A stretch of DNA of 64,000 nt from Candidatus Saccharimonadota bacterium (GCA_016866755.1 VGLK01000005.1:10272-74271), one strand, 5' to 3'; counted from the first letter of the stretch, positions 10,318 through 40,224 are shown. The notes: a model not told the origin generated them from the sequence alone. Numbers and translations are program-made.

Positions 10318-11763
10318 TTAGCGCGCCCCTCGCCTAAACACTACAACGGCAATGGTTTTAAATAAAATTTTTATATCGAGCCAAAAGCTCCAGTTCCGAG
10401 CGTAAAATAACTCTAATTCAATTCGCTCTTCGAAAGATAAATTGCTACGCCCAGAGACTTGCCACAACCCAGTAACGCCAGATTTAACACTATGAAGCAA
10501 TGCCGTTCGGGTGCGTGAAAAGTTTACTTCTTGCGGTAGGATTGGCCGCGGACCAACCAGACTTAAATCACCACGTAGTACATTAAAGAACTGCGGTAAT
10601 TCATCAAGTGATGTTTTACGAAGAAAAGCACCGAAACGAGTAATTCGTGGATCTTTACTTACCTTATGGTGTTTTTTATACTCTTTTGCAAGGTCGGCTC
10701 GCCCAATCTCTTTAAACTCTTCCGCGGCATCTTTTTTACCGTAACGAGCATCCATGCTGCGAAATTTAACTAAATTTATAGGTTTAGAAAACTGACTGAG
10801 TCGCTTACTGGTGTAAAACACTGGGCCAGGATTAAAAAGTTTTTGCAGAACAATAAGAACGATGAACAATGGCGAAAGAAGCGTGATGCCTATCACGGCA
10901 GCTATGCGATCGAAGACCTCTTTTACGATTGCTCCCCAGCCAATAAGCGGAGTCTGACTTACGGTGATCATTGGGTAGCCCAAAAAAACATCGACGGTAT
11001 TTTTGCCGGTATAAAACTCAGGCTCACCCGGAATAAAACTATATTCAATATGATGAACCTGCGCGGCTGTAAGTATTTGCTGATTACGTTCTTCCGAATC
11101 GTAGAGGTCGGTTTGAATGATAGTTGATATTCGTTGTGACTCTATATCGCTCAGTGCTGGAGTGACGGATTTGTAATGGGTTACTGTGTGTGATTTTGGT
11201 GTAAACTTTTTAGGGCCGGCTACTGCAATAATTTTGTAACCGCTTCGGGCGGTGTCGGCTAAGGCTTCGGCAATATCTAATGTAGCCTCACTGGTGCCAA
11301 TAAGTAGCACCCGACGCACGCCAATTCCGTAGCGAAACAATGCACCTCGCAAAATTCGTAACACCTCGCGCTCAAAAATGGTAAGCAATAAGGTGGCGAT
11401 AAAGGCATAGAGTGCGACGAGTCGAGCGGGGAAAAGACGAGCTTCGGATACGTATTCTACGCCAATCACTAAAAGCACACCAATAAATACACCAATACCA
11501 ATTTTTGCCCATTCTACCAAGCGGCGATTATAAGTGCTTGAGCGATACAAGCCCAAGGTAGCGAAGATCAAAATCCAGATTGGTGTAATAAGCAGAAACG
11601 ACAGGAAATATTCAACAGCGTAAACTTCTGCAAGGAGTGGTCGGGGGTCGTACTGCACGCGCAAAATGTAGGCTGCGGTGAATGCCAGCATAAGTGTAAA
11701 AATGTCGGCAAATATAAGAATAACACTGTAAAACTTGGAGTTTCTGGTTGGCATATATGACAA
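10318..11763 (-). CDS. polyprenyl-phosphate sugar-phosphotransferase (WbaP/EpsL-type priming enzyme)
   Basis: N-terminal TM block, central Rossmann-like region, C-terminal [21 protein letters not shown] bacterial sugar transferase motif. Confidence 0.9.
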
Positions 11764-11791: not shown

Positions 11792-12262
11792 CTAGTTTGA
11801 GCAGTTGTAAAATGGGATCATAATTGTTGCAATACCTTTATTAGAGGTACCTGCGGTAACGCTATCTCTGTTAGAGCACTGTGCCGCCTGAGTTGAGCCT
11901 TCGCCTTCATTTTCATCAATGCCGTACGGGTCACCCCAAGGGTTGCCGTCTTTAATGCTGTCAAGATTGGTTTGACTAGCTGCAGCAATACGATCGATGC
12001 TTAAAACGTAGCGGGCTGGGTCGGTTGAGCAGCGCGTGCAGTTAGATCCGGTAATAGAATAGAGTGTTCTATCGGTGTTAAGTCTGGCGGTGTGAATAGC
12101 TTTTATAAACATGTTTAATTCGCTATTGGCTTGTGAAACCTTTGCTCGTTCCTGAATGCCGTTATAGGCAACTACAGTAATTGCCGCCAGAATGGCAATA
12201 ACAACAATAACAATAAGTAGCTCTACAATAGTAAAGCCGCGTGGTGAATGGGGCTTGTTCAT
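11792..12262 (-). CDS. type IV pilin-like protein (prepilin N-terminal methylation domain)
   Basis: RGFTIVELLIVIVVIAILAAITVVAYNGIQ; start placed at internal ATG 12262 (MNKPHSPRGF). Confidence 0.85.
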   Translation of the reverse strand: MNKPHSPRGFTIVELLIVIVVIAILAAITVVAYNGIQERAKVSQANSELNMFIKAIHTARLNTDRTLYSITGSNCTRCSTDPARYVLSIDRIAAASQTNLDSIKDGNPWGDPYGIDENEGEGSTQAAQCSNRDSVTAGTSNKGIATIMIPFYNCSN

Positions 12263-12282
12263 GTGCTTAGTATAGCATAAGC

Positions 12283-12813
12283 CTAATTGCCACCGGCCCA
12301 ACTTCGCCATGGTCCGGTACTGGTGTCGGTTTGAGAGTAGCCAGCCTGCTGCCAGCCCATCTCACTGTTTACAATACTATTACAGTTAATGCCAGTCGGG
12401 TTCCAGCTGGTCGCTCCCGTGTATTGCTGCGGGCCACTATTATGAGTTATATAATAAATATTTCCAGAAATACTGAGAGCTACTACTGCGTAGCGTATGC
12501 GTCCACTGTTGCGGCAATACCATAAATTTCCTTCGGTGGTAGGCGAGGTAGCGTACGATTTTTTACTCGCTTTAAAATTAAAAGCCTCTAGTTCGGCAAC
12601 CGAATTTGCGCCCGCCGGGTACAGGTCGTTTTCTGCCTTGTACATCTCAATTTTAGTGCGCAGCGTACGAAGATCACTCTGCACTGCCGTATCATTAGCC
12701 CTATTTTGAATGCCATTATACGCAACAATCGTAATGGCCGCTAAAATGGCAATTACCACAATTACAATAAGCAGTTCAACAATGGTAAAGCCACGCGATT
12801 GTATATTTTTCAT
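12283..12813 (-). CDS. type IV pilin-like protein (subfamily with NRANDTAVQSDLR)
   Basis: SRGFTIVELL class III signal; start at ATG 12813 (MKNIQSRGF). Confidence 0.85.
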   Translation of the reverse strand: MKNIQSRGFTIVELLIVIVVIAILAAITIVAYNGIQNRANDTAVQSDLRTLRTKIEMYKAENDLYPAGANSVAELEAFNFKASKKSYATSPTTEGNLWYCRNSGRIRYAVVALSISGNIYYITHNSGPQQYTGATSWNPTGINCNSIVNSEMGWQQAGYSQTDTSTGPWRSWAGGN

Positions 12814-12817
12814 GAGC

Positions 12818-13429
12818 TTAAGCTCCATTTGGTGGTGTTTCGTTACAGCCAGTTATATTTGAGAGTGTGTAGGAATGTTTGTAATAATCCCAGTTAATGT
12901 TATAAGTTCCCGATGATGCGCCACCAATGTTGGTGTGGTTGCAAATATAAAACTGCGAGCTTAACGAAGCTTCTCGAAAGCCAAGACGACGATATAGGGT
13001 ATTGGTCTGTGGTTCACCGGATACCATATTCCATGCAGAAACTACATAATTAGTGCCATCGCTTGCATAAATATAACAACCACCCCGCGAACTCACACCG
13101 CTTGGGAGCGTGTGACTTTGTGGTAAGGATATGTCTGCTGCTAAATCTGGTACCCAATTGGCAGTGCGGTTAGTGCCTGGTATGTTGCAGTTAGCATCAG
13201 TTAAAGTAGTGTTAAGCCCACCCGTAGATGGATAGCTGCCGTTTTCAGAGGCGTAAAGCTGCACAAGTTTATGAACGCGATTAAGCTCTGATTGCACCTT
13301 AGAATTATGGGCGCGATCTTGAATGCCATTATACGCAACAATCGTAATGGCGGCCAAAATAGCAATGACCACAATGACAATTAGAAGTTCTACGATGGTA
13401 AAGCCAGTGCGTGAAGTAGAATTTTTCAT
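12818..13429 (-). CDS. type IV pilin-like protein
   Basis: RTGFTIVELL; start at ATG 13429 (MKNSTSRTGF), 1 nt after the upstream stop. Confidence 0.85.
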   Translation of the reverse strand: MKNSTSRTGFTIVELLIVIVVIAILAAITIVAYNGIQDRAHNSKVQSELNRVHKLVQLYASENGSYPSTGGLNTTLTDANCNIPGTNRTANWVPDLAADISLPQSHTLPSGVSSRGGCYIYASDGTNYVVSAWNMVSGEPQTNTLYRRLGFREASLSSQFYICNHTNIGGASSGTYNINWDYYKHSYTLSNITGCNETPPNGA

Positions 13430-13430
13430 A

Positions 13431-13976
13431 TTATATTGCTGGCAATCCCGTATGACAGCCAGTTGTTTCTGTGTCGAATATACGATTAATTTGTCGCAAC
13501 CCCGAACCCACGTCGCAGCTGACATTGCCTTTTAGGTAGTACATTATTTCTGCCGAAGTACCGTCACTGTTTCCATGAAACCAAGCACCGCTATAGCTGT
13601 CGCCTCGACATGTCATTCGTTGGGCGCTCGGCTCTGGTACTTGGCCGTTAAAGATAGTTTTCATCTCGTCTTCAAACCCTATTTGGCTGCCAGCGCCACC
13701 GCCGATACACATGTTTGAGGTGTTTGAGGTTCGTTTACCGCAAGAAGTGGGATGCTTACCTAGGCAGGGCCAGCCGGCGAATTTTGGATAATGTCCATTT
13801 TGCGCCTGATACGACATGATGGCTGTTGCATATGAACGAACCGCCGACATTGTTTTGGTGTTTTCGGCGCGGGTTTGTATACCATTATAAGCCACAATAG
13901 TAATGGCGGCTAGAATGGCAATTACCACAATTACAATTAGAAGTTCGACGATGGTAAAGCCTTTGTTTTTAACCAT
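13431..13976 (-). CDS. type IV pilin-like protein (CLG subfamily)
   Basis: MVKNKGFTIVELL. Confidence 0.9.
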   Translation of the reverse strand: MVKNKGFTIVELLIVIVVIAILAAITIVAYNGIQTRAENTKTMSAVRSYATAIMSYQAQNGHYPKFAGWPCLGKHPTSCGKRTSNTSNMCIGGGAGSQIGFEDEMKTIFNGQVPEPSAQRMTCRGDSYSGAWFHGNSDGTSAEIMYYLKGNVSCDVGSGLRQINRIFDTETTGCHTGLPAI

Positions 13977-14143
13977 AAGTACTTTAAATAGTAACTCAAA
14001 CCGACTATTTGTTCAAATGCTAAAGCCCTATTACTCTATGTTTGCTACGGTGAATTGCTGCCGATAGAACGGAACTAACCCAAGGCAATTACTGTGTGCA
14101 AGCCGCGCGGTCGCGGCAGTACGGTTAGTAAAAAATATCTACT

Positions 14144-14650
14144 TTATGAGCTTGCATGGATATAATTAAATGGTTCGCCATCAAAGGTGAAGGTAGAAGC
14201 CGAGCTGCCCTCAAGATTGCCGATAATTACGTAGTCGCTGTGGTTGCCGCCAGTAATACTTAACCCATCGCTCGATTTTCTCATTCCTCGTGCGTACACA
14301 TAGCGGTACGTGCCATCGTTGATTGGATCGGTCGGCAGCGTAGCATTACCAAGGTATTGAGAGATATTGCGCAAACTATTGAGCGACTCGCAACCGGAGG
14401 CGACGTTGCTACGGGCGTGATAGCAACCACTCGTGGTAGTTGGCGGTGCGCCATTATCGGCAACATAAAGCTTTACATAGCGCTCAATTGATGCCATTTC
14501 ACTCACACGTTCGCTATTACGGGCGCGCTGCTGTATACCGTTATAGGCCACAATTGTAATGGCGGCTAGAATGGCGATGACAACGATGACAATAAGGAGC
14601 TCAACGATAGTAAAGCCACGTAACTGCATAGATTTTCGGGGAGAATTCAT
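14144..14650 (-). CDS. type IV pilin-like protein
   Basis: LRGFTIVELL; ATG 14650 overlaps the upstream TAA by 1 nt (TAATG); protein ends in Ser-Ser. Confidence 0.85.
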   Translation of the reverse strand: MNSPRKSMQLRGFTIVELLIVIVVIAILAAITIVAYNGIQQRARNSERVSEMASIERYVKLYVADNGAPPTTTSGCYHARSNVASGCESLNSLRNISQYLGNATLPTDPINDGTYRYVYARGMRKSSDGLSITGGNHSDYVIIGNLEGSSASTFTFDGEPFNYIHASS

Positions 14651-15120
14651 TATAAGTTTACGCCTCCGGCCGACCACACACCCCATCCTCTACCGGGTCG
14701 ACGAGTATCAAGACTAGGGTGTGATTTCTCTATTTCAGGAAATTGCTCAGCCAGATTTACGAGGCGAACTACCTTATATTCTGTGCCGCCGGTTGTCCAT
14801 ATATAAGCATAATAACTATTTGGGGCGTTCGGTAGAGGGGTTCGCGGTAAATAATTGCTACCAAGCATGGCACCTATATTGGTATTTGTTGTACTGCCAG
14901 CACCTACGCCGTTATGCGGGTAATGTCCGTTGTCTGCGTGGTACATTTTTATAGCCGTATCAATATTTTTAATATCTGACTGCATTGAACTATATCGTGC
15001 TCGTTCTTGAATACCATTATAAGCCACAATCGTAATCGCCGCCAAAATGGCAATCACTACAATTACAATAAGTAATTCAACGATAGTAAAGCCGGGCGAC
15101 CGCTTAAGAGTAATAACCAT
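14650..15120 (-). CDS. type IV pilin-like protein
   Basis: SPGFTIVELL. Confidence 0.9.
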   Translation of the reverse strand: MVITLKRSPGFTIVELLIVIVVIAILAAITIVAYNGIQERARYSSMQSDIKNIDTAIKMYHADNGHYPHNGVGAGSTTNTNIGAMLGSNYLPRTPLPNAPNSYYAYIWTTGGTEYKVVRLVNLAEQFPEIEKSHPSLDTRRPGRGWGVWSAGGVNL

Positions 15121-15130
15121 AAGTATTTTA

Positions 15131-15160
15131 AGTATACCCGATCGCGCAGCGCTTTATCAA
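15131..15160 (-). promoter_or_regulatory. sigma70-like promoter for pilin gene 14650..15120
   Basis: Minus strand TTGATA-18 nt-TATACT; -10 ends 10 nt before the ATG; no SD in between. Confidence 0.45.
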
Positions 15161-15170
15161 GGTAGGGGTA

Positions 15171-15671
15171 TTAAACGTTAAACGACCAAATTTGATTATT
15201 AGATTCGGGAAGGGCGATACTACAGGCTCGTGTACCGGTACCGGTACTTGCTACAGAGGTGTCGTAGGTTATTTCTATTAAGCCACGAGACGAAGTGAGA
15301 GCCTGTAGTGTGTCGCCGTTTGCAACTGACGTGCTTGGAGTAAGTGGATCGAAGGCAATAATAGCAAACTGAGAATTATTTGCGCCATTATAGCAAAACG
15401 AGAATACTTTTTGGCGAGTAGACGTCGCCTGATACATGCCAGACTCTTGCAGTATAGAAGTAATTGTTGAGGTATTGAGCGGCACGCTGTCGGCTGTTTT
15501 AAGGCGAACAAGTTGCGACAGATTACGTAAATCTGATTGGACTGCTGCAGTACGACTGCGCTCTTGAATACCGTTATACGCCACAATTGTAATCGCCGCC
15601 AAAATGGTAATCACTACAATCACAATTAACAATTCAACGATGGTAAAGCCGCCGAGGCGCCTATGCGTCAT
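15171..15671 (-). CDS. type IV pilin-like protein
   Basis: LGGFTIVELL; ATG 15671 in an ATGA overlap with the upstream stop. Confidence 0.85.
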   Translation of the reverse strand: MTHRRLGGFTIVELLIVIVVITILAAITIVAYNGIQERSRTAAVQSDLRNLSQLVRLKTADSVPLNTSTITSILQESGMYQATSTRQKVFSFCYNGANNSQFAIIAFDPLTPSTSVANGDTLQALTSSRGLIEITYDTSVASTGTGTRACSIALPESNNQIWSFNV

Positions 15672-16210
15672 CGTAAATCTCCTAAGAAAATATAACACAC
15701 AGTTGTAACTGTAGAGCGGTTGGTGTGGTCAGCTCCAGAAAGTGTCATTTCGTGCCAAGGTAAACTAAGAACATTCGGAAGTCCGCACGGTTGGCTAGCA
15801 TCGACCCCATATACAAGCACCTGGTAATCGCCAAACCAGTTTCCGTGGTAGTATAATCCACCATTATTCCATTTTGGGTTCATTCGTGTCGATGAGCTAG
15901 CGCCAGCCTGGGCTAATCTTTCGTTCAGGTCGTTATTGACACTACCGGTCGAACCGTTAAATGTACAGTTACCACCCGAATATACAGCTGGATCGCCAAG
16001 ACAATGTGCACCAGAGGGTAGAGACCCTTCTTGCTGCAGTAACTTAAAAGCAGTAACAAATGAACGTGCATGAGCAACATTTTTAGCCGTTTCGGCCCGC
16101 GTTTGAATACCGTTATAAGCCACAATTGTAATCGCCGCCAAAATGGCAATGACTACAATCACAATAAGTAATTCAACGATTGTAAACCCGAGTTTAAGTT
16201 TTATTTTCAT
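15668..16210 (-). CDS. type IV pilin-like protein (CLG subfamily)
   Basis: KLGFTIVELL. Confidence 0.9.
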   Translation of the reverse strand: MKIKLKLGFTIVELLIVIVVIAILAAITIVAYNGIQTRAETAKNVAHARSFVTAFKLLQQEGSLPSGAHCLGDPAVYSGGNCTFNGSTGSVNNDLNERLAQAGASSSTRMNPKWNNGGLYYHGNWFGDYQVLVYGVDASQPCGLPNVLSLPWHEMTLSGADHTNRSTVTTVCYIFLGDLR

Positions 16211-16245
16211 AACGTATTATAATTTTAGCATAAGCAGTATGCTTA

Positions 16246-16767
16246 CTACAGGTTCGCAAATCGATACACGCACTGAGTAACTAAGCCGCCTTCGTTGGCC
16301 GAGGTGCTGCCAGGTAGACAGGGTTGATCAGTACCTTTTAGATAATAAATTATTCGCTCACCCCCACTGTTTTGATACATTGCACCTGCACGCATATTAT
16401 CACCAATACCAATTGAAAAGCGGCTTGTAGCGAGCGTTGGCTTACTGGTAAGTACCTGAGAAATTTGGGTATCTAAGCTAGCATTGACTGAAATATTGCC
16501 GCTTGTACCAGCCCAGCACTGATTACCTGGATACCCGGCGCCAAGACAGCCTAAGTGTGATGGGTAACTTGAATTAAGGGTTGCGTATTGTTGAATGGCG
16601 GTAATATAGGTGCGTACGCCAGCGGTTACCTGTGAGTTGGTTGCTCGATTTTGTATGCCGTTATACGCCACAATTGTAATGGCCGCCAAAATGGCAATTA
16701 CTACAATTACGATTAACAATTCAACAATGGTAAAACCGCGAGATGTTGCTGTATTTATTTTAAGCAT
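16246..16767 (-). CDS. type IV pilin-like protein (CLG subfamily)
   Basis: SRGFTIVELL. Confidence 0.9.
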   Translation of the reverse strand: MLKINTATSRGFTIVELLIVIVVIAILAAITIVAYNGIQNRATNSQVTAGVRTYITAIQQYATLNSSYPSHLGCLGAGYPGNQCWAGTSGNISVNASLDTQISQVLTSKPTLATSRFSIGIGDNMRAGAMYQNSGGERIIYYLKGTDQPCLPGSTSANEGGLVTQCVYRFANL

Positions 16768-16777
16768 AAGTAATTTA

Positions 16778-16806
16778 AGTATAATTCACAATGTGTTCAC
16801 CAGCAA
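16778..16806 (-). promoter_or_regulatory. sigma70-like promoter for pilin gene 16246..16767
   Basis: Minus strand TTGCTG-17 nt-TATACT; -10 ends 10 nt before the ATG. Confidence 0.5.
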
Positions 16807-16821
16807 GTTGAGGCATGATTT

Positions 16822-17340
16822 TTAAACACTAGGTAGGTAGATACGACAAAAAATATCATCGCCGTAAACGGCGCGACTCATAAATCGGGCACCTGCAATA
16901 GAAGGACAATCTCCCGAGCCTTGGATTAAAAAGCCAATATAGTTACCGCTTTGGTAGTAAAATATTCCTCGCGCTACACTGGCGCCATTAACAGCAGAAT
17001 TCATTGGTACAGTTGGCGGCGAAGAGACATAGGGTCGCAGAGCATTCTCGAGCGCTGAATTGTAGTTGTATGTTCCCGCACCTACGTAGCATGGCTGAGA
17101 ATTATAGGCTGATTCTGCACCAAGGCAGCTATTAAATGCCGGCAAGCTACCATTGTCAACACCATAGGATTGTAGTGCGGTGTAGTAAGTGCGAACGGCT
17201 GTGGTCATTTGTTGATTAGCTGCTCGCTCTTGAATACCATTGTAGGCCACAATCGTAATGGCCGCCAAAATGGCAATTACTACAATTACAATTAGTAACT
17301 CTACGATAGTAAAACCAGATTGTTTTTTCAATAAACTCAT
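16822..17340 (-). CDS. type IV pilin-like protein (CLG subfamily)
   Basis: QSGFTIVELL. Confidence 0.9.
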   Translation of the reverse strand: MSLLKKQSGFTIVELLIVIVVIAILAAITIVAYNGIQERAANQQMTTAVRTYYTALQSYGVDNGSLPAFNSCLGAESAYNSQPCYVGAGTYNYNSALENALRPYVSSPPTVPMNSAVNGASVARGIFYYQSGNYIGFLIQGSGDCPSIAGARFMSRAVYGDDIFCRIYLPSV

Positions 17341-17348
17341 CTAGTACA

Positions 17349-17376
17349 AGTATACAGATTGATTAAGCATAAGCAA
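17349..17376 (-). promoter_or_regulatory. sigma70-like promoter for pilin gene 16822..17340
   Basis: Minus strand TTGCTT-16 nt-TATACT; -10 ends 8 nt before the ATG. Confidence 0.45.
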
Positions 17377-17378
17377 AA

Positions 17379-17978
17379 TTATAGGGTTGCCGGATTGGGC
17401 AGTATAACGCGGCAAAGGGAGGTACCCGAGGTTTGCTCTGTCCAGCCATTTTGCGTAGGAGAGCTGGTGGCTGCCGACCATGAACCACCACTCAGGCCGC
17501 TTAAGGTGCAGCTTGCGTTATGGGAAAGTACATAAATTAGATACCAACTATGTGGTTGTTCATCGAGTGGGACATTTGAAGCGGAGTAAGAAGCACTAAT
17601 GCGACAGCCCGTATACATTGGCAGGCAGCGGGTTGAAGGTGCTGGATAGCTGCCACCCAGAAACGGTCGCAGCCGTGCCATAAAGTCGTCATCTACTGTA
17701 CCACCGTAACAGTTAGCGCTATAAACGGTAGAATCGCCAAGACAAACTGATTTTCGGTTAGTGCCATCTGGATAGCTTCCGTTTTCGATTGCGTACTGAA
17801 TAAGAGCTTTTCGATACGCATTAACTGCAGATTCGGTTTTAGCGTTCTCGGCTCTCCCTTGAATACCATTGTAGGCCACAATTGTAATCGCCGCCAAAAT
17901 TGCAATGACTACAATTACGATTAGTAGCTCGACAATTGTAAAGCCGCGCCGATTAGTAGTGGAGGTTATGGTAGCCAT
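17379..17978 (-). CDS. type IV pilin-like protein (CLG subfamily)
   Basis: RRGFTIVELL. Confidence 0.9.
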   Translation of the reverse strand: MATITSTTNRRGFTIVELLIVIVVIAILAAITIVAYNGIQGRAENAKTESAVNAYRKALIQYAIENGSYPDGTNRKSVCLGDSTVYSANCYGGTVDDDFMARLRPFLGGSYPAPSTRCLPMYTGCRISASYSASNVPLDEQPHSWYLIYVLSHNASCTLSGLSGGSWSAATSSPTQNGWTEQTSGTSLCRVILPNPATL

Positions 17979-18502
17979 GGTGCCCAGTTGTTATTTAAGT
18001 ATAAAATATCGCGATCGGTACTAGCGGCTTGTGGTATGCCGGCATTATTGCAGATAGTGTGTGAATAATCGTGATGCCAAGCCGAGGCTTCTGTATAGGC
18101 TCCGGTGGCAGAAGAGTAGGTAAAGACAGTACCAGATTTACTAGAGGCAAGTAGAGCAAATTGTGTTGGCGGCGTATCAACGGCAACACGGCAGTAGATA
18201 AGATTGTGTATACCGCCAGCAAACCCACTACCGTAGGCATTTCTTGAAACACGCAGATCTAGGTTAGAAAGCTGAGCAGTGCCTGCTGGATACACCTGAT
18301 GTTCGGCACGATAAAGTTCAAATTTCTTTACAATTGCAGCCATGTCAGCCTTTACTGAGGTATCGTTGGCTCGATTCTGTATACCGTTGTAGGCCACAAT
18401 TGTAATCGCCGCCAAAATGGCAATGACTACAATTACGATTAACAATTCAACGATGGTAAAGCCACGCTGCCGCAAGTGTGAGATGGTTTTGTTTACGCTC
18501 AT
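17966..18502 (-). CDS. type IV pilin-like protein (NRANDT subfamily)
   Basis: QRGFTIVELL. Confidence 0.9.
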   Translation of the reverse strand: MSVNKTISHLRQRGFTIVELLIVIVVIAILAAITIVAYNGIQNRANDTSVKADMAAIVKKFELYRAEHQVYPAGTAQLSNLDLRVSRNAYGSGFAGGIHNLIYCRVAVDTPPTQFALLASSKSGTVFTYSSATGAYTEASAWHHDYSHTICNNAGIPQAASTDRDILYLNNNWAPWLP

Positions 18503-18504
18503 GG

Positions 18505-19272
18505 CTATTGCTCCTTTTTTCCAACAATAATTACATCGTCTATAAGGCCGTTAAAATTACTGGCAGTTCGATGAGCACCAATATTAACACCAGACTCTAC
18601 TGGGTTTAAAGCAGGATGTCCGGTTGATTCGCGTATTTTTTTGCCGTCAAGAAACAGGCTGTAGGTACCATTATCAAATTCCACTGCCACATGATACCAA
18701 GTGTTTAATTTTAGTGTTTCGCTTGAACTAATGCGACCATAACTACCATTGTGACCGGCAAAAATACGCGGTTGACAGTTTGATGCAGGTGAAGTTGGAA
18801 TGTAGAATGGCGAGTCTTGGCCACCAGTGTCAGGACTAGAGATAATATTATTGTTAGCATCACAGCGGGTGAGATTAATCCAGGCTGCCTTGAGGTAGTA
18901 ATTTTCACCTAGTGTGGCGTTAGTGCGAATACGGGTTGAGCCATTAAACTGGCCGGCACAGCCGCTGCCTGTGGGAGTGTTACTTGACCACTCAAGAGTG
19001 CCGACTATATTGCTAGTTATCTGGCTACTCGCGTTGTTGGCCGCGGTTGTACCGCTACATTCATCAAATGACCATACTCCGTCGGCAGACAGTAAATGTT
19101 TCTTTTTTAGCTGTGAGGCAAACGCCGTAGCCGAAGCCACGCGTGCCCGTTCTTGTATTCCGTTATAAGCGATAATTGTAATGGCCGCCAAAATTGCAAT
19201 GACTACAATTACAATTAGTAGCTCGACAATTGTAAATCCACGCTGAGTAAAAGAACGCTGTGAATAATTCAT
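18505..19272 (-). CDS. modular type IV pilin-like protein with C-terminal LamG/concanavalin-A-like module
   Basis: QRGFTIVELL N-terminus, plus NTWYHVAVEFDNGTYSLFLDGKK and FNGLIDDVIIV, typical of the Laminin_G_3 jelly-roll. Confidence 0.8.
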   Translation of the reverse strand: MNYSQRSFTQRGFTIVELLIVIVVIAILAAITIIAYNGIQERARVASATAFASQLKKKHLLSADGVWSFDECSGTTAANNASSQITSNIVGTLEWSSNTPTGSGCAGQFNGSTRIRTNATLGENYYLKAAWINLTRCDANNNIISSPDTGGQDSPFYIPTSPASNCQPRIFAGHNGSYGRISSSETLKLNTWYHVAVEFDNGTYSLFLDGKKIRESTGHPALNPVESGVNIGAHRTASNFNGLIDDVIIVGKKEQ

Positions 19273-19276
19273 AAGA

Positions 19277-19768
19277 TTAGGTTGTCCAGTTTACCCAACC
19301 GCCATTAGTAAGACCCCAGGTTCCAGCCGAAGATACTCCTTGATTCGAGCAAGTTGTAGTGTGAGTAACGAGCGCGCCAGCATCGCGTACAAGACCGCCC
19401 TGAGAGCGAAACGCGAATGTAGTACCAGATTTACTGCCGGCTACAATGGCAAAGCGGGTGCCATCAGAACAGTACAGCAAATTATAATCACTTAAGCCGG
19501 AAGGCGTATAGTGTGCCCCATAGGCGCGCTGGGTGGCAGTAAATCCTAGCTGATCAAGATCTGCGGCGTTAATTGCCGGAAGTCGATCATTAATCACTTG
19601 AAATTCGCGAATTTTACCAGCAATGTTACGAAGATCACTCTGCACTGCCGTATCATTAGCCCTATTTTGAATGCCATTATACGCAACAATCGTAATAGCC
19701 GCTAAAATGGCAATTACAACAATTACGATTAACAATTCAACAATGGTAAAACCTGTTTGTTTTTTCAT
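19277..19768 (-). CDS. type IV pilin-like protein (NRANDT subfamily)
   Basis: QTGFTIVELL. Confidence 0.9.
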   Translation of the reverse strand: MKKQTGFTIVELLIVIVVIAILAAITIVAYNGIQNRANDTAVQSDLRNIAGKIREFQVINDRLPAINAADLDQLGFTATQRAYGAHYTPSGLSDYNLLYCSDGTRFAIVAGSKSGTTFAFRSQGGLVRDAGALVTHTTTCSNQGVSSAGTWGLTNGGWVNWTT

Positions 19769-19792
19769 GCTGTCACCATTTTAGCATAAGCT

Positions 19793-20338
19793 TTATGGAC
19801 CGATAATACTTACTACACAGGTGGTGATTGTGCCGGTGGTTGCGGTAAACCGTGCAGTAGGAGTGGCCATGGTAGCTCCGCCGCTATTTGTTAGATTAGA
19901 GAGTTGGCAATCTTGCGAGCCGCCCTTTAAGAAGTAAACAATAGCCAAAGGTTGATTAACGCCATTAAAAGTACGAGAGCCGACGTAATTATATACAATG
20001 CCAAAATTTGTATCGTCGGCGCGTGGCGTTGAACCTGGTAGCGAAGCAATGGCAGTAATATTGCCCGGTGCCGAACCAGCTGAATTTGGCGGTACGTTAG
20101 TAGACCAATTGCAACCGCTTTGTGTAGTTAGGCAAAAGCTGCTGGTTGCGGGGTAGCTATCATGAGTGGTGATGTATGAGCGTAGGGCACTTACGGCATT
20201 TTTGGCCGCCGAAAGCGTTGCAGTATTGTTCGCCCTATTTTGAATGCCATTATACGCAACAATTGTAATAGCCGCTAAAATTGCAATCACTACAATAACA
20301 ATAAGTAATTCAACAATGGTAAAGCCGCGCGATTTCAT
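19793..20338 (-). CDS. type IV pilin-like protein (CLG-like subfamily)
   Basis: MKSRGFTIVELL. Confidence 0.9.
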   Translation of the reverse strand: MKSRGFTIVELLIVIVVIAILAAITIVAYNGIQNRANNTATLSAAKNAVSALRSYITTHDSYPATSSFCLTTQSGCNWSTNVPPNSAGSAPGNITAIASLPGSTPRADDTNFGIVYNYVGSRTFNGVNQPLAIVYFLKGGSQDCQLSNLTNSGGATMATPTARFTATTGTITTCVVSIIGP

Positions 20339-20415
20339 ATGGGTATCATACCATATTGCTTATGGCTGATTCTAGCTTGTAAAATTCATGAAATTAAAAT
20401 GATATAGTAAAAGAG

Positions 20416-21726
20416 ATGACGCGGATTGACACATGGATAACCGGACTTTTAGTAGTGGTAATTATTGGATTATCGCTGCATGCGCCCTTTACGGTACTAA
20501 TTACCACGCATGTTCCAAGTATGGAACTAGCGGCAAAAGCCTGGAAAGAAGTACTGTTATTTATTGCGTTAAGTCTTTGCGTGATAAAGGCGGTGCAATT
20601 AAAAAAGTTACAGCTTTTAACGCGTGATCGACTGCTTCAGCTTTTGGCACTTTACGTTTTGCTACATGTTATTTTACTTGGCTTTATGTGGCAAGGCATT
20701 GTACCAGCGCTGGCGGGATTGCTTATTGATTTACGCTGGGTGCTTGGATTTATAACTGTATACTGCGCGGTTAAGTTGGTGCCGTCTCTGTCGCCGGTAT
20801 TGTTAAAGTCAGCAATCATTGGCGCCGCAATAATTATTGGGTTTGGTGTATTACAGTTGTTTCTTCCGCACGATAGCTTAAAATACATTGGCTACGACAG
20901 GCGGGAAACTATCGCTCCCTATCTTACAGTCGACCAAAACTATGATTATATTCGAATAAACAGTACTATGCGAGGGCCAAATCCGCTAGGCGCTTACGTT
21001 ATGATTGTATTGGCGCTGGTACTAGCTGCAGCGGTAAGGGGTAAGTTGTTATTACATACCACCCGGCAAAAAGTTGCCGTAGCAGCCTTGCTAGCGGCCT
21101 GCGCTAGCGTATTATGGGTTACGTATTCACGGAGCGCCCAAGGTGCTGCAGCTATAGCGGTTGGTATTGTAGGTGTCGTGGGGCTTTGGCGGCTTTATTC
21201 ATGGCGGATTATAGCCGTGTTTGGAATTGTGGGATTAATGATGCTAGGCGGACTTTATGCAGCGCGCGAAAGTGATTTTGTGTCGCATGTTATTTTGCAC
21301 GAAGACCCAAATGAAGGCAACGATATAAACTCTAACGATGGCCACGTAGATTCTGTGGCGCTTGGTTTAGAGCGAATGGCTGCTCAGCCGCTAGGGGCGG
21401 GTATTGGTAGTACCGGTTCAGCTTCACTGTTAGGCGACGGCGAGCCAATTATTATTGAAAATCAATATTTATTTATTGCCCATGAGGTGGGCTGGTTGGG
21501 GATGGCGTTATTTTTAGTACTACAAGCCTATATTTTGCAACAGTTATGGCGGCGTAAAGATGATTGGCTTAACCTTGGTTTGTTTGCGAGCGGCGTAGGC
21601 TTGCTTGCGATTGGTATGCTGCTGCCGGTGTTGGTAGATGATACGATTGCGATTATATGGTATGCGCTGGCGGCACTTGCACTTGCTGGCGGGCGAACTC
21701 TACCGGCTAAAAATAAAAAACATTAG
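20416..21726 (+). CDS. O-antigen ligase family (Wzy_C) membrane protein; possible pilin O-oligosaccharyltransferase
   Basis: 436 aa polytopic; WVTYSRSAQG, then a periplasmic loop with His and AAQPLGAGIGSTG, matching the Wzy_C pattern; divergent from the pilin array. Confidence 0.7.
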   Translation: MTRIDTWITGLLVVVIIGLSLHAPFTVLITTHVPSMELAAKAWKEVLLFIALSLCVIKAVQLKKLQLLTRDRLLQLLALYVLLHVILLGFMWQGIVPALAGLLIDLRWVLGFITVYCAVKLVPSLSPVLLKSAIIGAAIIIGFGVLQLFLPHDSLKYIGYDRRETIAPYLTVDQNYDYIRINSTMRGPNPLGAYVMIVLALVLAAAVRGKLLLHTTRQKVAVAALLAACASVLWVTYSRSAQGAAAIAVGIVGVVGLWRLYSWRIIAVFGIVGLMMLGGLYAARESDFVSHVILHEDPNEGNDINSNDGHVDSVALGLERMAAQPLGAGIGSTGSASLLGDGEPIIIENQYLFIAHEVGWLGMALFLVLQAYILQQLWRRKDDWLNLGLFASGVGLLAIGMLLPVLVDDTIAIIWYALAALALAGGRTLPAKNKKH

Positions 21727-21751
21727 CAATACACGGTATACTAAAAAGAGT

Positions 21752-23482
21752 ATGAAGCAAAAATTATTTCGTTTACAGCGCTGGGTTCGGTGGCATCCGC
21801 GTAAAACTGCTCTTATAATTGTCGCTGGATTATTATTGCTAGTTATTATTATTCAGTTGCTGTACCCGTTTTCACGTCTGCCACTTTACCTTACAATTGA
21901 CGGCAAAAATGTAGGCGGTATGCCTATGGGTCAGATTGCGAGTCAGCTTGATAAGGCGTATGCAAACGAGACTATTGAACTTTACTATGGCAGTCGAGAT
22001 GAGGCGTATATGTCGCCAAAGCCCGCTGAATTTGGCGTACAGGTAACAAACAGAGAGCGCGTTGAGGCGGCTGGATATCCGCTCTTATTACGCCTTGTGC
22101 CAACCTCACTATTTTGGGCGCACACTCAAGTAGAAGTTAGCGCGCCGGAATATATTCGCGATCAATCAAGGTTAACAAAGTTTGTAAACGAGAAACTTGG
22201 CGAGTCGTGTAATGTAGAGCCAAAAAATGCTTCATTTGTGGTACGTAATAATGAGGCAGTGGCTGAGCGCGCCTTGCCGGGTGGAACGTGCTCACTTGAT
22301 GACGTAAAATCGGTGCTTGAAGCTGTAGAGGTTTCAATCACAAAAAAGAATCTCTCTCGAATTGCTATGGACGAAATTCCGGCAGACATACCAACCGAGC
22401 AAGCAGCGGAATTAGTGGCGCGCATTAATCAGCAAACCGATGGTGGTATTCCTTTGCGGGTGAACGAAGAGACTTACACGTTGCCTAAAAAGTCGGCACT
22501 AGAGTGGATAATGCCTGTTGAAAAAGACGGAAAACTTACGGTGACGTTTGATGCGGCAAAAGTTAGTGAAGGCTTAAAAGAGCCGGTAGAAGCCAAAGTG
22601 TATCAGGCTGCCGGCACCACAAAAGTATTTACTAAAGATTTCCAAGAGGTTCGTCGCGAGGTAGGGCCTGACGGTCGCCAGCTCGATATTCCAGCTACTA
22701 TTGATAGCATGGCTCGGTTTGCGACTGGCGAAGATAATGTTGCCGCAGCGCAAACAAAAGCTTTGCCAGCTACGCTGGTGTACGAACGCAGCTATAGCAA
22801 TAGCGACGAAGGACTTTCGGCGCTATTAAAGCAGCATGCAGAAGACAACAAGGGCGGAGAGTTTGGCGTATCGCTCATAGAATTATCAGGTGATCGTCGC
22901 CGGGCCGATTACAATGGTGATAAGCAGTTTGTAAGCGCTAGTACGTATAAACTTTACGTGGCCTACAGCGTACTTAAAAGAGTAGAAAATGGCACCATGA
23001 AATGGGGCGACACGCTTACGGCTGGCATATCGGTAGAACAGTGTTTTAATGCTATGATTTCGCGCTCGGATAACGCATGTGCCGAAAGTTTTGTAAAAAA
23101 AATTGGTTATCGACCACTTACAAACGAGGCGGTTAATTTGGGTGCAAAAAATACTACCTTTGTAGACATGGAAAGTTACAAGACGACCGCAAATGATCTG
23201 TCGCTTTTTAATGCCGCGCTAGAATCGTCTCAGTCGCTGCAGGGTGATAGCCGAGCTAAGCTGCTTGATGCTATGCGTAAGAATATTTTCCGTCAGGGTG
23301 TGCCGGCGGGGGTACAGGGCTCGGTGGCAAATAAGGTTGGTTTTTTAGATGGGTACCTACACGATGCAGCGATTGTTTATTCTGATCAAGGTACGTATGT
23401 GTTAAGTGTAATGACTAAAGATAGCAGCTGGAATACGATCAAGGCACTTAGTAAAAAGATAGACGAAGTCCGCAGGCAGTAG
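21752..23482 (+). CDS. membrane-anchored serine hydrolase, class A beta-lactamase/PBP-like C-terminal domain
   Basis: SxxK (ASTYK), SDN (SRSDN) and KxG (NKVGF) in canonical order; N-terminal TM helix; start set at ATG 21752 (MKQKLF). Confidence 0.6.
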   Translation: MKQKLFRLQRWVRWHPRKTALIIVAGLLLLVIIIQLLYPFSRLPLYLTIDGKNVGGMPMGQIASQLDKAYANETIELYYGSRDEAYMSPKPAEFGVQVTNRERVEAAGYPLLLRLVPTSLFWAHTQVEVSAPEYIRDQSRLTKFVNEKLGESCNVEPKNASFVVRNNEAVAERALPGGTCSLDDVKSVLEAVEVSITKKNLSRIAMDEIPADIPTEQAAELVARINQQTDGGIPLRVNEETYTLPKKSALEWIMPVEKDGKLTVTFDAAKVSEGLKEPVEAKVYQAAGTTKVFTKDFQEVRREVGPDGRQLDIPATIDSMARFATGEDNVAAAQTKALPATLVYERSYSNSDEGLSALLKQHAEDNKGGEFGVSLIELSGDRRRADYNGDKQFVSASTYKLYVAYSVLKRVENGTMKWGDTLTAGISVEQCFNAMISRSDNACAESFVKKIGYRPLTNEAVNLGAKNTTFVDMESYKTTANDLSLFNAALESSQSLQGDSRAKLLDAMRKNIFRQGVPAGVQGSVANKVGFLDGYLHDAAIVYSDQGTYVLSVMTKDSSWNTIKALSKKIDEVRRQ

Positions 23483-23527
23483 CCCCTTGACCTCGGGGTA
23501 GATTTTGGGCTATAATCCTATTTGTAT

Positions 23528-23602
23528 TCCGGCGTAGCTCAGTGGTAGAGCGGTTGGCTGTTAACCAATAGGTCACTGGTTCGAGCCCAGTCGCCGGAGC
23601 CA
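23528..23602 (+). tRNA. tRNA-Asn (anticodon GTT)
   Basis: Acceptor TCCGGCG/CGCCGGA, D arm GCTC-AGTGGTA-GAGC, anticodon arm GTTGG-CTGTTAA-CCAAT, T arm ACTGG-TTCGAGC-CCAGT, discriminator G, encoded CCA. Confidence 0.92.
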
Positions 23603-23825
23603 GAGCAAGCAGAGAAAAACGCAAACCTAGTTCCTAGACCTGCAATAACTTCTCTCCTTGCTCAGTCGAGAAGACAAAGTGCCGACAACAAGGTGCAGAT
23701 GTTGGAACCGTCCGAAAGGGCGGTTCTTTCATTTGACCCCTGTTACTTGGTTCTAGCCCAGCCCGTCCCGTCTTGAGGGAGCAAGCAGCCAAAAAGCTGA
23801 CCCGTTCCCTAGACCTGTCCCTGTC
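23603..23825 (+). repeat. tRNA-trailing block, copy 1 (hairpins, terminator, degenerate tRNA-3'-end remnant at 23749-23780)
   Basis: About 85 percent identical by eye to 26837-27055. Contains the 14-bp-arm inverted repeat 23603-23616/23650-23663 and the terminator hairpin 23705-23726 followed by a T-run. Confidence 0.8.
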
Positions 23826-23898
23826 TTAAAGCTTCATAAACAGCTTCATAAAATAACAACATGATGCTAGAAAACACTAAATCTGATATCATATATGC

Positions 23899-24225: not shown

Positions 24226-24243
24226 ATATAGAAAGGGACAATA

Positions 24244-28934: not shown

Positions 28935-28983
28935 ACCAAGGACAACTGTACCGCGATGGCTATGTAAGTCTAGCCCTAATTGA

Positions 28984-31324: not shown

Positions 31325-31356
31325 ATGTCCGTTATTATAGTGCAGTCAGAAACAGT

Positions 31357-33323: not shown

Positions 33324-33344
33324 ACATTAATTGTACCGCTACTA

Positions 33345-33374
33345 TCAACACTAATCAACACTAATCAACACTAA
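33345..33374. repeat. three perfect tandem 10-bp units (TCAACACTAA) 22 nt upstream of the HTH-methylase start
   Basis: Read directly: ACTA-TCAACACTAA-TCAACACTAA-TCAACACTAA-TTAATA. Confidence 0.9.
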
Positions 33375-36766: not shown

Positions 36767-36777
36767 CTTAGGCTAAC

Positions 36778-37535: not shown

Positions 37536-37536
37536 T

Positions 37537-38463: not shown

Positions 38464-38464
38464 C

Positions 38465-40223: not shown

Positions 40224-40224
40224 T

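Follow-up and report, generated by a model that had tools for sequence, protein, structure and literature searches.

According to published reports, nearly all of the phylum Saccharibacteria, tiny episymbiotic bacteria that use pili for host attachment, have type IV pili (T4P), and in TM7x (Nanosynbacter lyticus) one locus of five genes contains pilins only, with the machinery encoded elsewhere (PMC11623550). The Haloferax volcanii pilins PilA1-PilA6 (Esquivel et al. 2013) share a conserved H-domain and are unlinked to biosynthesis genes; according to PMC4371748, each PilA paralogue builds pili and adhesion differs among them. The T4P of Streptococcus sanguinis contain a pair of major pilins (PilE1, PilE2) as a heteropolymer (PMC8179133; PDB 8pfb), and its modular minor pilins carry a vWA module (PilB) or a ConA-like lectin module (PilC) (PMC8179133).

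Here we describe an array of exactly 15 tandem minus-strand prepilin genes (P01-P15; Table 1) at positions 11792-20338 of the 64-kb stretch of Candidatus Saccharimonadota DNA that was analysed (64,000 nt; the window). We favour, with moderate confidence, the reading of a consolidated repertoire: 15 complete T4a-like pilin genes that encode co-assembling subunits with alternative heads for adhesion. The 15 genes are probably a reshufflable subunit set for host-attachment pili. In scale and dynamics the array is new relative to the known pilin-only loci of Saccharibacteria.

Table 1. Features of the pilin array and its surroundings (positions in the window)
Feature	Position	Strand	Description
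Left flank	10318..11763	-	Polyprenyl glycosylphosphotransferase (Bac_transf, TIGR03025)
P01	11792..12262	-	Prepilin, singleton head, 4 Cys, GspG-like N-half
P01 promoter	12269-12274		Own -10 box TATACT
P02	12283..12813	-	Prepilin, group A head, 2 Cys
P02 tract	12666..12735	-	Gene-conversion tract, 70-nt exact identity to P14
P03	12818..13429	-	Prepilin, singleton head, 4 Cys; abuts P04
P04	13431..13976	-	Prepilin, group B head, CLG motif, 6 Cys
P04 promoter	13981-13993		-10-like boxes
Hairpin	14102..14117	-	GC-rich, GCCGCG-ACCG-CGCGGC, read from sequence
P05	14144..14650	-	Prepilin, singleton head, 2 Cys, C-terminus ...ASS
P06	14650..15120	-	Prepilin, singleton head, no Cys
P06 promoter	15160-15131		Promoter-like TTGATA-18-TATACT
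P07	15171..15671	-	Prepilin, distant group A-like head
P08	15668..16210	-	Prepilin, group B head, 4 Cys
P08 motif	16222-16235		GCTTATGCTAAAAT
P09	16246..16767	-	Prepilin, group B head, two predicted disulfides
P10	16822..17340	-	Prepilin, group B head
P10 motif	17349-17354		TATACT
P11	17379..17978	-	Prepilin, group B head, 6 Cys
P12	17966..18502	-	Prepilin, group A head; AGGAG SD motif upstream
P13	18505..19272	-	Modular pilin: pilin module + Laminin_G_3 (ConA-like lectin/glucanase) domain
P14	19277..19768	-	Prepilin, group A head, C-terminus ...WTT
P14 tract	19627..19696	-	Partner copy of the 70-nt exact tract
P14 motif	19778-19791		GCTTATGCTAAAAT
P15	19793..20338	-	Prepilin, distant group B head
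P15 promoter	20345-20353		Extended -10, TGGTATGAT
Right flank	20416..21726	+	Wzy_C (O-antigen ligase family) membrane protein, 436 aa
Recombinase	27663-28934		Large serine recombinase, 7 kb from the array

An earlier reading made from the DNA alone (the sequence-only reading) had claimed fifteen consecutive minus-strand pilin-like genes with a common class III signal and helix, and both statements were borne out. Each of the 15 ORFs contains GFTIVELLIVIVVIAILAAITIVAYNGIQxR, with Gly-1, Phe+1 and Glu+5 in 15/15, and this 31-residue N-terminus is nearly invariant at the protein level. A six-frame motif scan of the 64-kb window detected exactly 15 pilin modules, every one inside the array, and all 15 proteins matched Pfam N_methyl (three also T2SSG). 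TIGR02532 was above cut-off in five of five scanned proteins (P01, P06, P09, P13, P14), and a profile built from the 15 proteins matched solved T4a major pilins and GspG. Several ORFs probably start later than their longest-ORF coordinates, namely at 12262, 12813, 13429, 14650 and 15671, the revised starts giving leaders of 5-14 aa. All copies are complete genes with an ATG start codon, leader and helix, and no truncated cassette was present. An assembly artefact was ruled out as the source of the array: L001, a JGI contig obtained independently, is 100% identical across 12665-24227, and two Logan contigs confirmed the right junction.

Alignable conservation extends over the entire alpha-1 helix (~69 columns) rather than ~30 residues only. 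Its 5' block, previously described as recurring along the locus, was recovered as a 127-nt unit in 15 copies (spacing 476-776 nt; 64-94% identity to the reference copy); what did not hold was identity at the DNA level, codon positions 1 and 2 being 95% and position 3 only 54% identical. Because third-position identity is so low, the codon pattern indicates strong purifying selection on the helix. One pair, P02/P14, shares a long exact tract, situated in the conserved helix and outside the head. In this pair, identical-residue codons agree at the third position in 15/15 cases in codon block 31-45, in 6/6 in block 46-60 and in about one third further downstream. A permutation test detected mosaicism (P=0.004), and a global longest-run test for conversion was not significant (P=0.24). 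These patterns point to occasional gene conversion among paralogues, firm for P02/P14 only. All copies in the window have Tyr24, and all but P07 (Thr) have Ala at mature residue 14; the copies in a related genome (L084) have Gly14 and Phe24 in 8/8, including six orthologous pairs with the window. Residue 14 (Ala/Gly) is fixed inside most genomes and differs between them. The module DNA also clusters by genome, a result confounded by GC content (44.6% vs 47.8%) and codon usage. Purifying selection together with occasional conversion between paralogues would keep the helix uniform per genome.

Behind the helix follow heads of ~100-140 aa. Group A consists of P02, P12 and P14, whose heads are related to one another (E ~1e-15), with P07 joining only weakly; P04, P08, P09, P10 and P11 are linked as group B (E 1e-4 to 6e-12), P15 being attached weakly (1e-2). 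P01 and P13 have singleton heads, and P03, P05 and P06 are connected weakly. The two families proposed in the sequence-only reading, an NRANDT(A/S)VQSDLR group of four and a YP....CLG group of about six, held up, with three and five firm members, respectively. Its LamG fusion was confirmed in P13 (Laminin_G_3, E 2.5e-18). Its description of the C-terminal domains as unrelated holds at the sequence level, where heads of different groups are unalignable with each other; the modelled heads, however, both have a predicted pilin-type architecture. The AF2 models of P09 (pLDDT 95) and P14 (pLDDT 94) each comprise a ~52-residue alpha-1 helix and a beta-sheet head. The best Foldseek match of the P14 model was Thermus PilA4 (6xxd; E 3e-4, TM 0.65), followed by a Neisseria pilin. 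For P09 no PDB fold match was found, and the group B head is assigned to the pilin fold on its predicted topology.

Both P09 and P14 belong to large conserved families (50-73% identity for P09); in other genomes, orthologues of the two occur as orphan genes or in small clusters, in housekeeping surroundings. The P09 head alone matched 37 clusters among 1.84 billion proteins, mostly proteins of 150-196 aa in which the head is placed likewise. Between relatives, orthologous heads share 48-69% identity and are therefore conserved, not hypervariable; paralogous heads are mostly unalignable. Head orthologues were found for P01 in L004 and L005 (49-55%, in another context, between RarA and Ddl), P02 in L075 (55%), P12 in L014 (57%) and P06 in the ES-bin-308 array (L068; 43%), which also contains LamG-pilin fusions. 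By these comparisons the array paralogues are old lineages and not a recent duplication burst.

The class III signal could instead serve as a general export or anchor device, or the proteins could form pseudopili for secretion or DNA uptake. Such a non-pilus use would suit the T2SSG and GspG-type matches in the array and the natural competence of Saccharibacteria (PMC10187176); archaeal class III substrates include non-pilin substrate-binding proteins (PMC4371748). The heads, however, are small and pilin-like in predicted structure, LamG is the only enzyme or binding-protein domain that Pfam detected in them, and a helix so strictly invariant is in keeping with packing in a filament core. We regard non-pilus use as quite improbable.

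Eight array starts have a -10 box directly upstream, ~5-12 nt before the ATG, and this spacing suggests leaderless or near-leaderless mRNAs for about eight genes; at P09, TATACTTAAATTACTT lies directly ahead of the ATG. The remaining seven genes have Shine-Dalgarno (SD) motifs or overlapping stop and start codons: P02 (GGAG) begins 4 nt beyond the P03 stop, P05 (GGAGG) and P07 (AGGAG) overlap the stops of P06 and P08, and P11 begins within the 3' end of P12, a 13-nt overlap. The only long gap (167 nt, 13977-14143) holds the GC-rich hairpin, which is not followed by a T-run and is a possible terminator of a P06-P05 unit. The same -10 arrangement occurs at >20 other genes of the window. A generic promoter scan showed no enrichment over shuffles (22 found vs 19.2 expected), so the transcription-unit model draws on -10 box position only. 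With about eight own -10 boxes and the other seven genes following, subsets could be expressed independently.

The sequence-only reading had suggested antigenic variation. In a programmed antigenic or phase-variation system, silent heads would be brought into an expression site by way of the 5' block (as in Neisseria pilE/pilS or Mycoplasma vsa), or individual genes would be switched on and off. Like pilE/pilS, the array has many tandem pilin-related sequences and gene conversion between copies. A conserved 5' module with variable 3' parts, the clear P02/P14 tract, the mosaic signal and a large serine recombinase encoded 7 kb away also speak for such a system. In Neisseria, the pilS copies have neither 5' end nor promoter and act as donors of variable head segments. 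In contrast, every array copy is complete, about eight have their own -10 box, and the detected tract falls in the helix. Heads of different groups are unalignable and therefore cannot recombine with each other, and orthologous heads are conserved. Neither inverted-repeat switches flanking promoters nor homopolymer or dinucleotide slippage tracts were found, and the recombinase belongs to a block apart, mobile-element-like and also containing DNA methyltransferases. Taken together, these findings make variation of this type very improbable. What survives of the reservoir proposed earlier is an alternative or accessory pilin repertoire for adhesion, which is our best reading.

In other Saccharibacteria, Bac_transf and Wzy_C are direct divergent neighbours, 252 nt and 42 nt apart in L090 and L091, and no pilins lie between them. 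Because of this adjacency, we conclude from gene order that the array is an insertion between these glycan genes; Wzy_C is transcribed divergently from P15. In L084 and L092 this site likewise holds arrays (three relatives by the overall count), with different order and content. L084 reads P05, P15, X, P09, Y, P04, P03, P07, then Bac_transf; its orthologues are R01 of P05 (64%), R02 of P15 (68%), R06 of P04 (71%), R07 of P03 (67%) and R08 of P07 (55%; adjoining Bac_transf), and the P04-P03 adjacency is kept. L092 reads Wzy_C, then P11, P14, P05, with S03 adjoining Wzy_C (55% to P11) and S01 (62% to P05). The sequence-only reading had counted a fixed order across relatives as evidence against itself; the order was found to vary.

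The same flanks could mark a pilin glycosylation island, with Wzy_C as a TfpO/TfpM/PglL-type O-oligosaccharyltransferase (OTase) that decorates the pilins with the glycan of the neighbouring Bac_transf and glycosyltransferase genes. As in the loci of TfpO/PilO, TfpM and PglL/PglS (PMC9829042, PMC3643930), a Wzy_C protein, here of a length inside the TfpM/TfpO range, adjoins pilin and glycan-synthesis genes, and the array lies between it and the initiating phosphoglycosyltransferase. All known pilin OTases carry Wzy_C (PMC9829042), candidate PglL-type OTase genes mostly adjoin possible targets (PMC3643930), and the array pilins contain 14-24% Ser+Thr. Unlike in those loci, the adjacency is secondary: Wzy_C and Bac_transf pair without pilins in L090 and L091 and constitute a separate glycan unit, into which pilins were inserted later. 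Moreover, P05 and P14 alone carry Ser or Thr at their C-terminus, which is where TfpO/TfpM acceptors have it, and all pilin loci retrieved by the module search lack these flanks. The right-flank protein belongs to a family conserved across Saccharibacteria (~50% identity); its Pfam Wzy_C match is borderline (31.9 bits vs a cut-off of 31.7), and neither an NCBIfam match nor a PDB sequence match was found. We consider the glycosylation link weak and this explanation improbable.

Minor pilins commonly deviate from the major one at Glu+5 or in the N-terminal helix, and a priming complex is usually encoded in a conserved operon. The array departs from both patterns, with Glu+5 and the same 31-residue helix in 15/15 and with order and content that vary among relatives. 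These features, about eight apparently separate promoters and multi-member families (3-4 in group A, 5-6 in group B) argue against an ordinary, if larger than usual, pilus set of one or two pili, in which a single major pilin would be joined by many non-interchangeable minor pilins (priming complex and tip adhesins). In favour of such a set, P13 is a LamG modular pilin of the type expected at filament tips (PMC8179133), P01 and P06 (the best GspG-like match of the array) resemble GspG-type pseudopilins, and in TM7x, with 12 pilins for two pili, minor pilins similar to T2SS pseudopilins are the proposed core minor pilins (PMC11623550). We hold the ordinary set to be unlikely, yet a serious candidate.

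The module occurs almost solely in Saccharibacteria MAGs, and this search and the source names of the matches upheld the earlier CPR assignment. As also stated previously, pilB, pilC, pilD and pilM are absent from the window: no T4P machinery domain was detected in any window ORF of at least 110 aa, and no GspE-type Walker A motif in the 64 kb. PilB-type ATPases lie at most 10 kb from same-module pilins in L009, L024 and L060. Under the favoured reading of a co-assembling repertoire, the array would have been built up inside the gap between divergent Bac_transf and Wzy_C. One PilD, platform and ATPase, encoded elsewhere, would process all 15 pilins into the same filament core; since all share the peptidase site and the alpha-1N helix, a single machinery could handle them. 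The differing solvent-exposed heads (two families with several members each, a number of singletons and a LamG fusion of lectin type) would equip the pili with surface and adhesive properties, alternative or combined; the analogy with TM7x and Haloferax makes host cell-wall glycans a probable target. Gene subsets may be expressed independently, and from one related genome to the next whole genes are gained or lost and change order; a candidate route of this turnover is recombination between copies of the 5' module.

Like the Haloferax pilins, the array pilins are paralogues with an almost identical hydrophobic N-terminal domain and different heads, an analogy of function only. Pilus formation by each paralogue, with adhesion that differs among them, is also what is proposed for the array. 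Haloferax differs in being an archaeon that uses PibD and has six genes vs 15, with no tandem arrangement reported in the covered passages. The S. sanguinis monoderm-type T4aP resembles our reading in co-assembling more than one major pilin in a single filament; the alignment of the array profile with PilE1 is nearly full-length, and the PilC lectin module and the P13 Laminin_G_3 domain belong to the same superfamily. It differs in having five pilins vs 15, in one pil operon with the machinery. Also among the closest described systems is TM7x, above all its locus three, which holds pilins only (5 pilins, T4P-2), and its lectin-like proteins PilX1 and PilX2 (PMC11623550). Both belong to the same phylum, cluster pilin genes apart from assembly genes and place small pilins beside a lectin-type modular pilin, with host binding via cell-wall glycans as the proposed role. 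Unlike the TM7x locus (five genes; 12 pilins in four loci genome-wide), the array combines 15 genes with an invariant helix common to all copies, inserted in a glycan locus.

The region holds 15 successive minus-strand open reading frames (P01 to P15, from left to right), each encoding Gly-Phe-Thr-Ile-Val-Glu followed by a long hydrophobic stretch, which confirms the tandem pilin paralogues proposed in the sequence-only reading. All 15 copies passed the class III signal criteria (short basic leader ending in Gly, Phe+1, Glu+5), with leaders of 5-14 aa when refined in-frame ATG starts were used. Pfam N_methyl (PF07963) matched 15/15 proteins (E ≤ 0.01; P01: 29.8 bits, cut-off 21.2), T2SSG matched 3/15, and TIGR02532 scored 25-30 bits (cut-off 16.3) in 5/5 copies scanned; no pilin equivalog model reached its cut-off. 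Within a 31-residue consensus running from GFTIVE to GIQxR, 28 residues were invariant across the 15 aligned copies, and a six-frame motif scan of the whole window found exactly 15 such modules, none outside the array. We conclude that the array comprises 15 complete T4a-type prepilins, alike in processing site and helix and diverse in their C-terminal remainders (heads).

An assembly artefact was ruled out as the origin of the array. An independently assembled JGI contig (L001) was 100% identical to the window, and two Logan contigs confirmed the right-hand array junction. The first position of L001 corresponds to window position 12665, exactly within the 5' module of P02, and the arrays of three related contigs (L084, L092 and L068, the last from ES-bin-308) are interrupted by contig ends. 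The repeated module thus breaks short-read assemblies, and pilin arrays are probably under-counted or truncated in metagenome-assembled genomes (MAGs).

Location of the array, its flanks and related features (window positions unless a contig is named), with gene orders and contexts
Feature	Position	Details
Bac_transf/TIGR03025 phosphoglycosyltransferase	10318-11763	left flank, glycan cluster
Prepilin array P01-P15	11792-20338	minus strand
Likely starts of five array genes	12262, 12813, 13429, 14650, 15671	longest-ORF start too far upstream
Overlap with contig L001	12665-24227	
Tract identical in P02 and P14	12666-12735 = 19627-19696	70 nt, exact
P13	18505-19272	N_methyl + Laminin_G_3 (E 2.5e-18)
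Wzy_C (O-antigen ligase family)	20416-21726	right flank
Site lacking LexA_DNA_bind gene	21727-21751	
LexA_DNA_bind small gene in relatives	L090 11299-11730; L091 11287-11709; L092 2855-3364	between Wzy_C and beta-lactamase-family gene
tRNA-Asn	23528-23602	
247-nt direct repeat	23574-23818 and 26807-27052	copies 84% identical
Mobile element-like region	27663-37119	large serine recombinase at 27663-28934
Small-gene run	37423-44791	few or no family matches
Genes with -10-like hexamer (examples)	1516, 5907, 7655, 20416, 29618-31324, 47502, 50005, 51169-52143, 52528, 53008	
Long pilins of ES-bin-308	L068 3599-5827 and 12013-13083	three, 341-360 aa
Actinobacterial pilins	L033 2861-3484 and 9944-10510	327-kb contig
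Gene order, window		Wzy_C, P15 down to P01, Bac_transf
Gene order, L084		P05-like, P15-like, novel, P09-like, novel, P04-like, P03-like, P07-like, Bac_transf (at least 8 pilins)
Gene order, L092		Wzy_C, P11-like, P14-like, P05-like, contig end
P09/P14 orthologue context (RAAC3_TM7)		ArgRS - pilin - CTP synthase
P09/P14 orthologue context		DUF192 - pilin(s) - YebC
P09/P14 orthologue context		RecJ - pilin(s) - S21

In a DNA repeat search, a single family emerged, with a 127-nt unit present 15 times at intervals of 476-776 nt. The 5' block of about 100 nt described as recurring every ~0.5 kb is therefore present, but it is not uniform as DNA: across the 31 module codons, identity was 95% at positions 1 and 2 and no more than 54% at position 3. 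This pattern argues that the invariance of the helix reflects mostly purifying selection on the protein, not recent copying. Some gene conversion acts on the helix alongside selection. P02 and P14, 7 kb apart, share an exactly identical tract, and in their codon blocks 31-45 and 46-60 the third positions matched in 21/21 identical-residue codons, compared with about one-third further downstream. When runs of matching polymorphic sites were assessed by permutation, the summed statistic was significant (P = 0.004) and the longest run was not (P = 0.24).

The helix also carries genome-specific residues. Window copies have Ala14 (Thr in P07) and, without exception, Tyr24, whereas Gly14 and Phe24 occur in 8/8 copies of L084, including six orthologous pairs. 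Across 20 genomes, residue 14 was uniform inside most genomes and different between them. Such uniformity calls for gene conversion or for parallel substitutions constrained by compatibility. In a third-codon test of orthologues at residues 14 and 24, intended to separate these two, synonymous sites were saturated and codon usage was genome-specific. Module DNA clustered by genome, but since GC content (44.6% vs 47.8%) and codon usage differ between genomes, we did not count this clustering as evidence.

The heads were compared by BLAST of the regions downstream of the invariant module. P02, P12 and P14 (NRANDT-type heads, group A) were linked at E ~1e-15, and P04, P08, P09, P10 and P11 (YP...CLG heads, group B) at E 1e-4 to 6e-12. 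The two multi-member families and the singletons (P01 and P13) of the earlier grouping thus stand; P07 joined group A and P15 group B only weakly, and P03, P05 and P06 were loosely linked. When profiles of the P09 and P14 families were compared, only 69 columns aligned, spanning all of the alpha-1 helix as far as a conserved Tyr-Pro, and the heads of the two groups did not align. Two of the 15 heads were modelled with AlphaFold (P09, pLDDT 95; P14, pLDDT 94), and in both models a ~52-residue helix leads through a loop into a sheet of four to five strands. Using Foldseek, the P14 model best matched Thermus PilA4 (E 3e-4, TM 0.65), followed by gonococcal and meningococcal pilin, C. difficile PilA1 and EpsG. 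The P09 model gave no significant match in the PDB and BFVD (viral) libraries, so that the group B fold is not anchored to a solved pilin; its predicted topology is nevertheless that of a pilin, with a long N-terminal helix on a C-terminal sheet. The description of the C-terminal domains as unrelated therefore holds for sequence and fails for overall architecture in the two modelled heads. A search with the P09 head alone against 1.84 billion representatives found just 37 clusters, mostly of proteins 150-196 residues long with the head at the same position.

P13 is, as judged from its domain matches, a modular pilin in which a LamG domain follows the pilin module. Three long pilins also occur in the ES-bin-308 array, two of which (341 and 356 aa) have common sequence motifs. 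We would guess that their C-terminal parts are lectin-like (LamG); if true, modular lectin pilins recur across Saccharibacteria arrays.

Programmed variation of the Neisseria or Mycoplasma type predicts silent cassettes and exchangeable heads. Instead, 15/15 copies have an ATG, a leader and a full helix, the two main families align in the helix only, and the sole clear conversion tract lies within the helix. Neither inverted repeats bracketing promoters (invertible promoters) nor slippage tracts were found. This mechanism is not supported, and the antigenic variation suggested by the sequence-only reading was not borne out.

The paralogues are old lineages. Heads of L084 and L092 orthologues were 48-69% identical to the window copies, while window heads of different groups were unalignable. 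The P09 and P14 families are large, with 50-73% identity over full length, and elsewhere their members are orphan genes or small clusters amid housekeeping genes; in ES-bin-308 a P01 orthologue lies between RarA and Ddl. The scattered orthologues indicate that the window lineage gathered pilin families that are dispersed in other genomes.

The site of this gathering is an insertion hotspot between Bac_transf, a polyprenyl glycosylphosphotransferase, and Wzy_C. The left-flank glycan cluster also encodes GT4, PMT_2, mannose-1-P guanylyltransferase, epimerase, GT2 and pyruvyl transferase, and next after Wzy_C come genes for a beta-lactamase-family protein, tRNA-Asn and a P-type ATPase; an Rfam scan of the window returned the tRNA-Asn only. 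On two long Saccharibacteria contigs, L090 (409 kb) and L091 (801 kb), gaps of 252 and 42 nt, respectively, separate the divergently oriented Bac_transf and Wzy_C genes, which are flanked by GT4 and beta-lactamase-family genes as in the window, with no intervening pilins. L084 (Bac_transf 74% and GT4 80% identical to the window) and L092 (Wzy_C 57% identical) carry pilins there in differing orders, and the P04-P03 pair is the only adjacency kept between the window and its relatives at this site. Array order and content are thus not conserved, contrary to a set of orthologues in fixed order, and the repertoire is fluid. This synteny emerged only from searches starting at Wzy_C and at P09 orthologues; no pilin synteny with glycan genes was seen among 77 related loci of a genome scan. 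Most of these loci carry 1-3 pilins, and their next-largest same-strand runs were 8 (ES-bin-308, cut by a contig end), 5 and 4.

Because Wzy_C adjoins the array, the locus could be a pilin-glycosylation island with Wzy_C as a TfpO/TfpM-type pilin O-oligosaccharyltransferase. This reading is weakened by the pilin-free Wzy_C/Bac_transf pairs of L090 and L091, by the presence of a terminal Ser/Thr acceptor in only 2/15 pilins (P05, ...ASS; P14, ...WTT) and by the borderline Wzy_C match (31.9 bits vs cut-off 31.7), which allowed no finer classification; NCBIfam and PDB sequences gave no match to Wzy_C.

To the right of the array, the small LexA_DNA_bind gene of the relatives is missing from the window. 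The first copy of a 247-nt repeat begins within the 3' part of tRNA-Asn, and the two copies lie on either side of the P-type ATPase region, so these could be att-like ends of an island. The following region looks like a mobile element; besides the recombinase it encodes three N6/N4 DNA methyltransferases, one of them a ParB_N fusion, together with a paired HTH_3 protein and M78 peptidase, and it contains two ORFs of 215 and 568 aa that lack a Pfam match. As L090 has a serine recombinase and a type I RM system directly after its beta-lactamase-family gene, this site may be one of recurrent integration. The small-gene run beyond, with an FtsK-like P-loop protein, DUF6994 and an HNH-WYL nuclease, may be further mobile or defence-related DNA.

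The 77 loci were obtained by searching the two most conserved peptides against 185,579 species genomes, and nearly all were Saccharibacteria/Saccharimonadia MAGs, in agreement with the presumed CPR origin. Two of them (L011 and L034, 'Chloroflexi bacterium PMG_070') have 0.46 GC and Saccharibacteria-type pilins, and their bin label may be wrong. Isolate Actinobacteria, Nocardioides cheoyonin KR10-350 (L033) and Parafrigoribacterium humi (L037), encode a near-identical N-terminal module (GFTLVELLIVIVVIAILAAI...NGIQDRANDAAVQSDL) with group A-type heads, ~33% identical to P02 over full length, in a 0.63 GC region where a type I RM gene also lies. Since cultivated Saccharibacteria are known to live on Actinobacteria, gene exchange between host and epibiont is possible.

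As had been noted, the window lacks pilB, pilC, pilD and pilM: no type IV pilus machinery domain was found in any ORF ≥ 110 aa, and the 64 kb contain no GspE-type Walker A motif, prepilin peptidase or PilB/PilC assembly gene. ORFs at 27663-36042, whose sizes had suggested PilB/PilC/PilT, were identified by Pfam as serine recombinase, three DNA methyltransferases and HTH genes. In three relatives (L009, L024, L060), PilB-type ATPases lie near pilins with the same module.

More than 20 genes across the window lack a Shine-Dalgarno (SD) motif and carry a hexamer resembling TATAAT whose first base lies 11-16 nt upstream of the ATG, the pattern of leaderless mRNAs, whereas operon-internal genes have a GGAG motif. 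This suggests that the organism uses leaderless mRNAs for operon-first genes. Such -10 boxes precede P01, P04, P06, P08, P09, P10, P14 and P15; GCTTATGCTAWAMT is common to three of them (0.45 chance matches expected), TATACTTAAAWTACTT-ATG is common to two array genes, and P06 has a -35 element in addition. GGAG-type SD motifs precede P02, P05, P07 and P12, each of which overlaps or directly adjoins its upstream gene. We hypothesize about eight units: P15; P14-P13-P12-P11; P10; P09; P08-P07; P06-P05; P04-P03-P02; and P01. A generic sigma-70 promoter and terminator scan showed no enrichment over shuffled sequences, which keeps this scheme hypothetical.

Cultivated Saccharibacteria rely on type IV pili for finding and binding host bacteria. 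In the most likely mechanism, PilD and an assembly machine encoded elsewhere would process all 15 prepilins, identical helices would let all subunits pack into one filament core, and the heads, including the P13 LamG lectin module, would supply alternative adhesive surfaces; subsets would be expressed from separate promoters. A further-reaching interpretation, possible though doubtful, is that the array is a combinatorial adhesin, in which any of 15 independently transcribed heads enters one filament by virtue of a helix kept uniform by selection and conversion. Expression would then retune surface chemistry and host range, the hotspot would allow cassette-like gain and loss, and the Gly/Ala switch at residue 14 would mark co-evolution of subunits and machine. 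For some members (P13, P01, P06), a place among numerous minor pilins beside one major pilin is plausible; that model agrees poorly with helix uniformity, the several predicted promoters and the variable content. Use of the class III signal peptides outside a pilus seems unlikely. One locus offers 15 distinct heads on a common stalk as concrete candidate host-recognition subunits, a lectin-type head among them; array content differs among close relatives, and the array is a natural experiment on core compatibility among many paralogues in one filament.

Pilin richness in CPR bacteria (PMC6744442) and pilin-only loci in Saccharibacteria (PMC11623550) were already known; the literature we searched gave no description of pilin arrays of this size, of the Bac_transf/Wzy_C hotspot or of genome-wide helix co-variation. 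Three precedents support the mechanism favoured here. TM7x combines a pilin-only locus, served by machinery encoded at a distance, with minor pilins of lectin-like type and binding to its host that depends on glycans (PMC11623550). In S. sanguinis, two major pilins form heteropolymeric pili, and a modular pilin carries a ConA-like lectin (PMC8179133). Haloferax PilA1-6 have one common H-domain, which is needed for assembly, and every paralogue alone makes pili that differ in adhesion (PMC4371748). The array resembles this PilA1-6 type, a functional class rather than a homology family, in its near-identical N-terminal hydrophobic domain, its different heads and the lack of machinery in the window.
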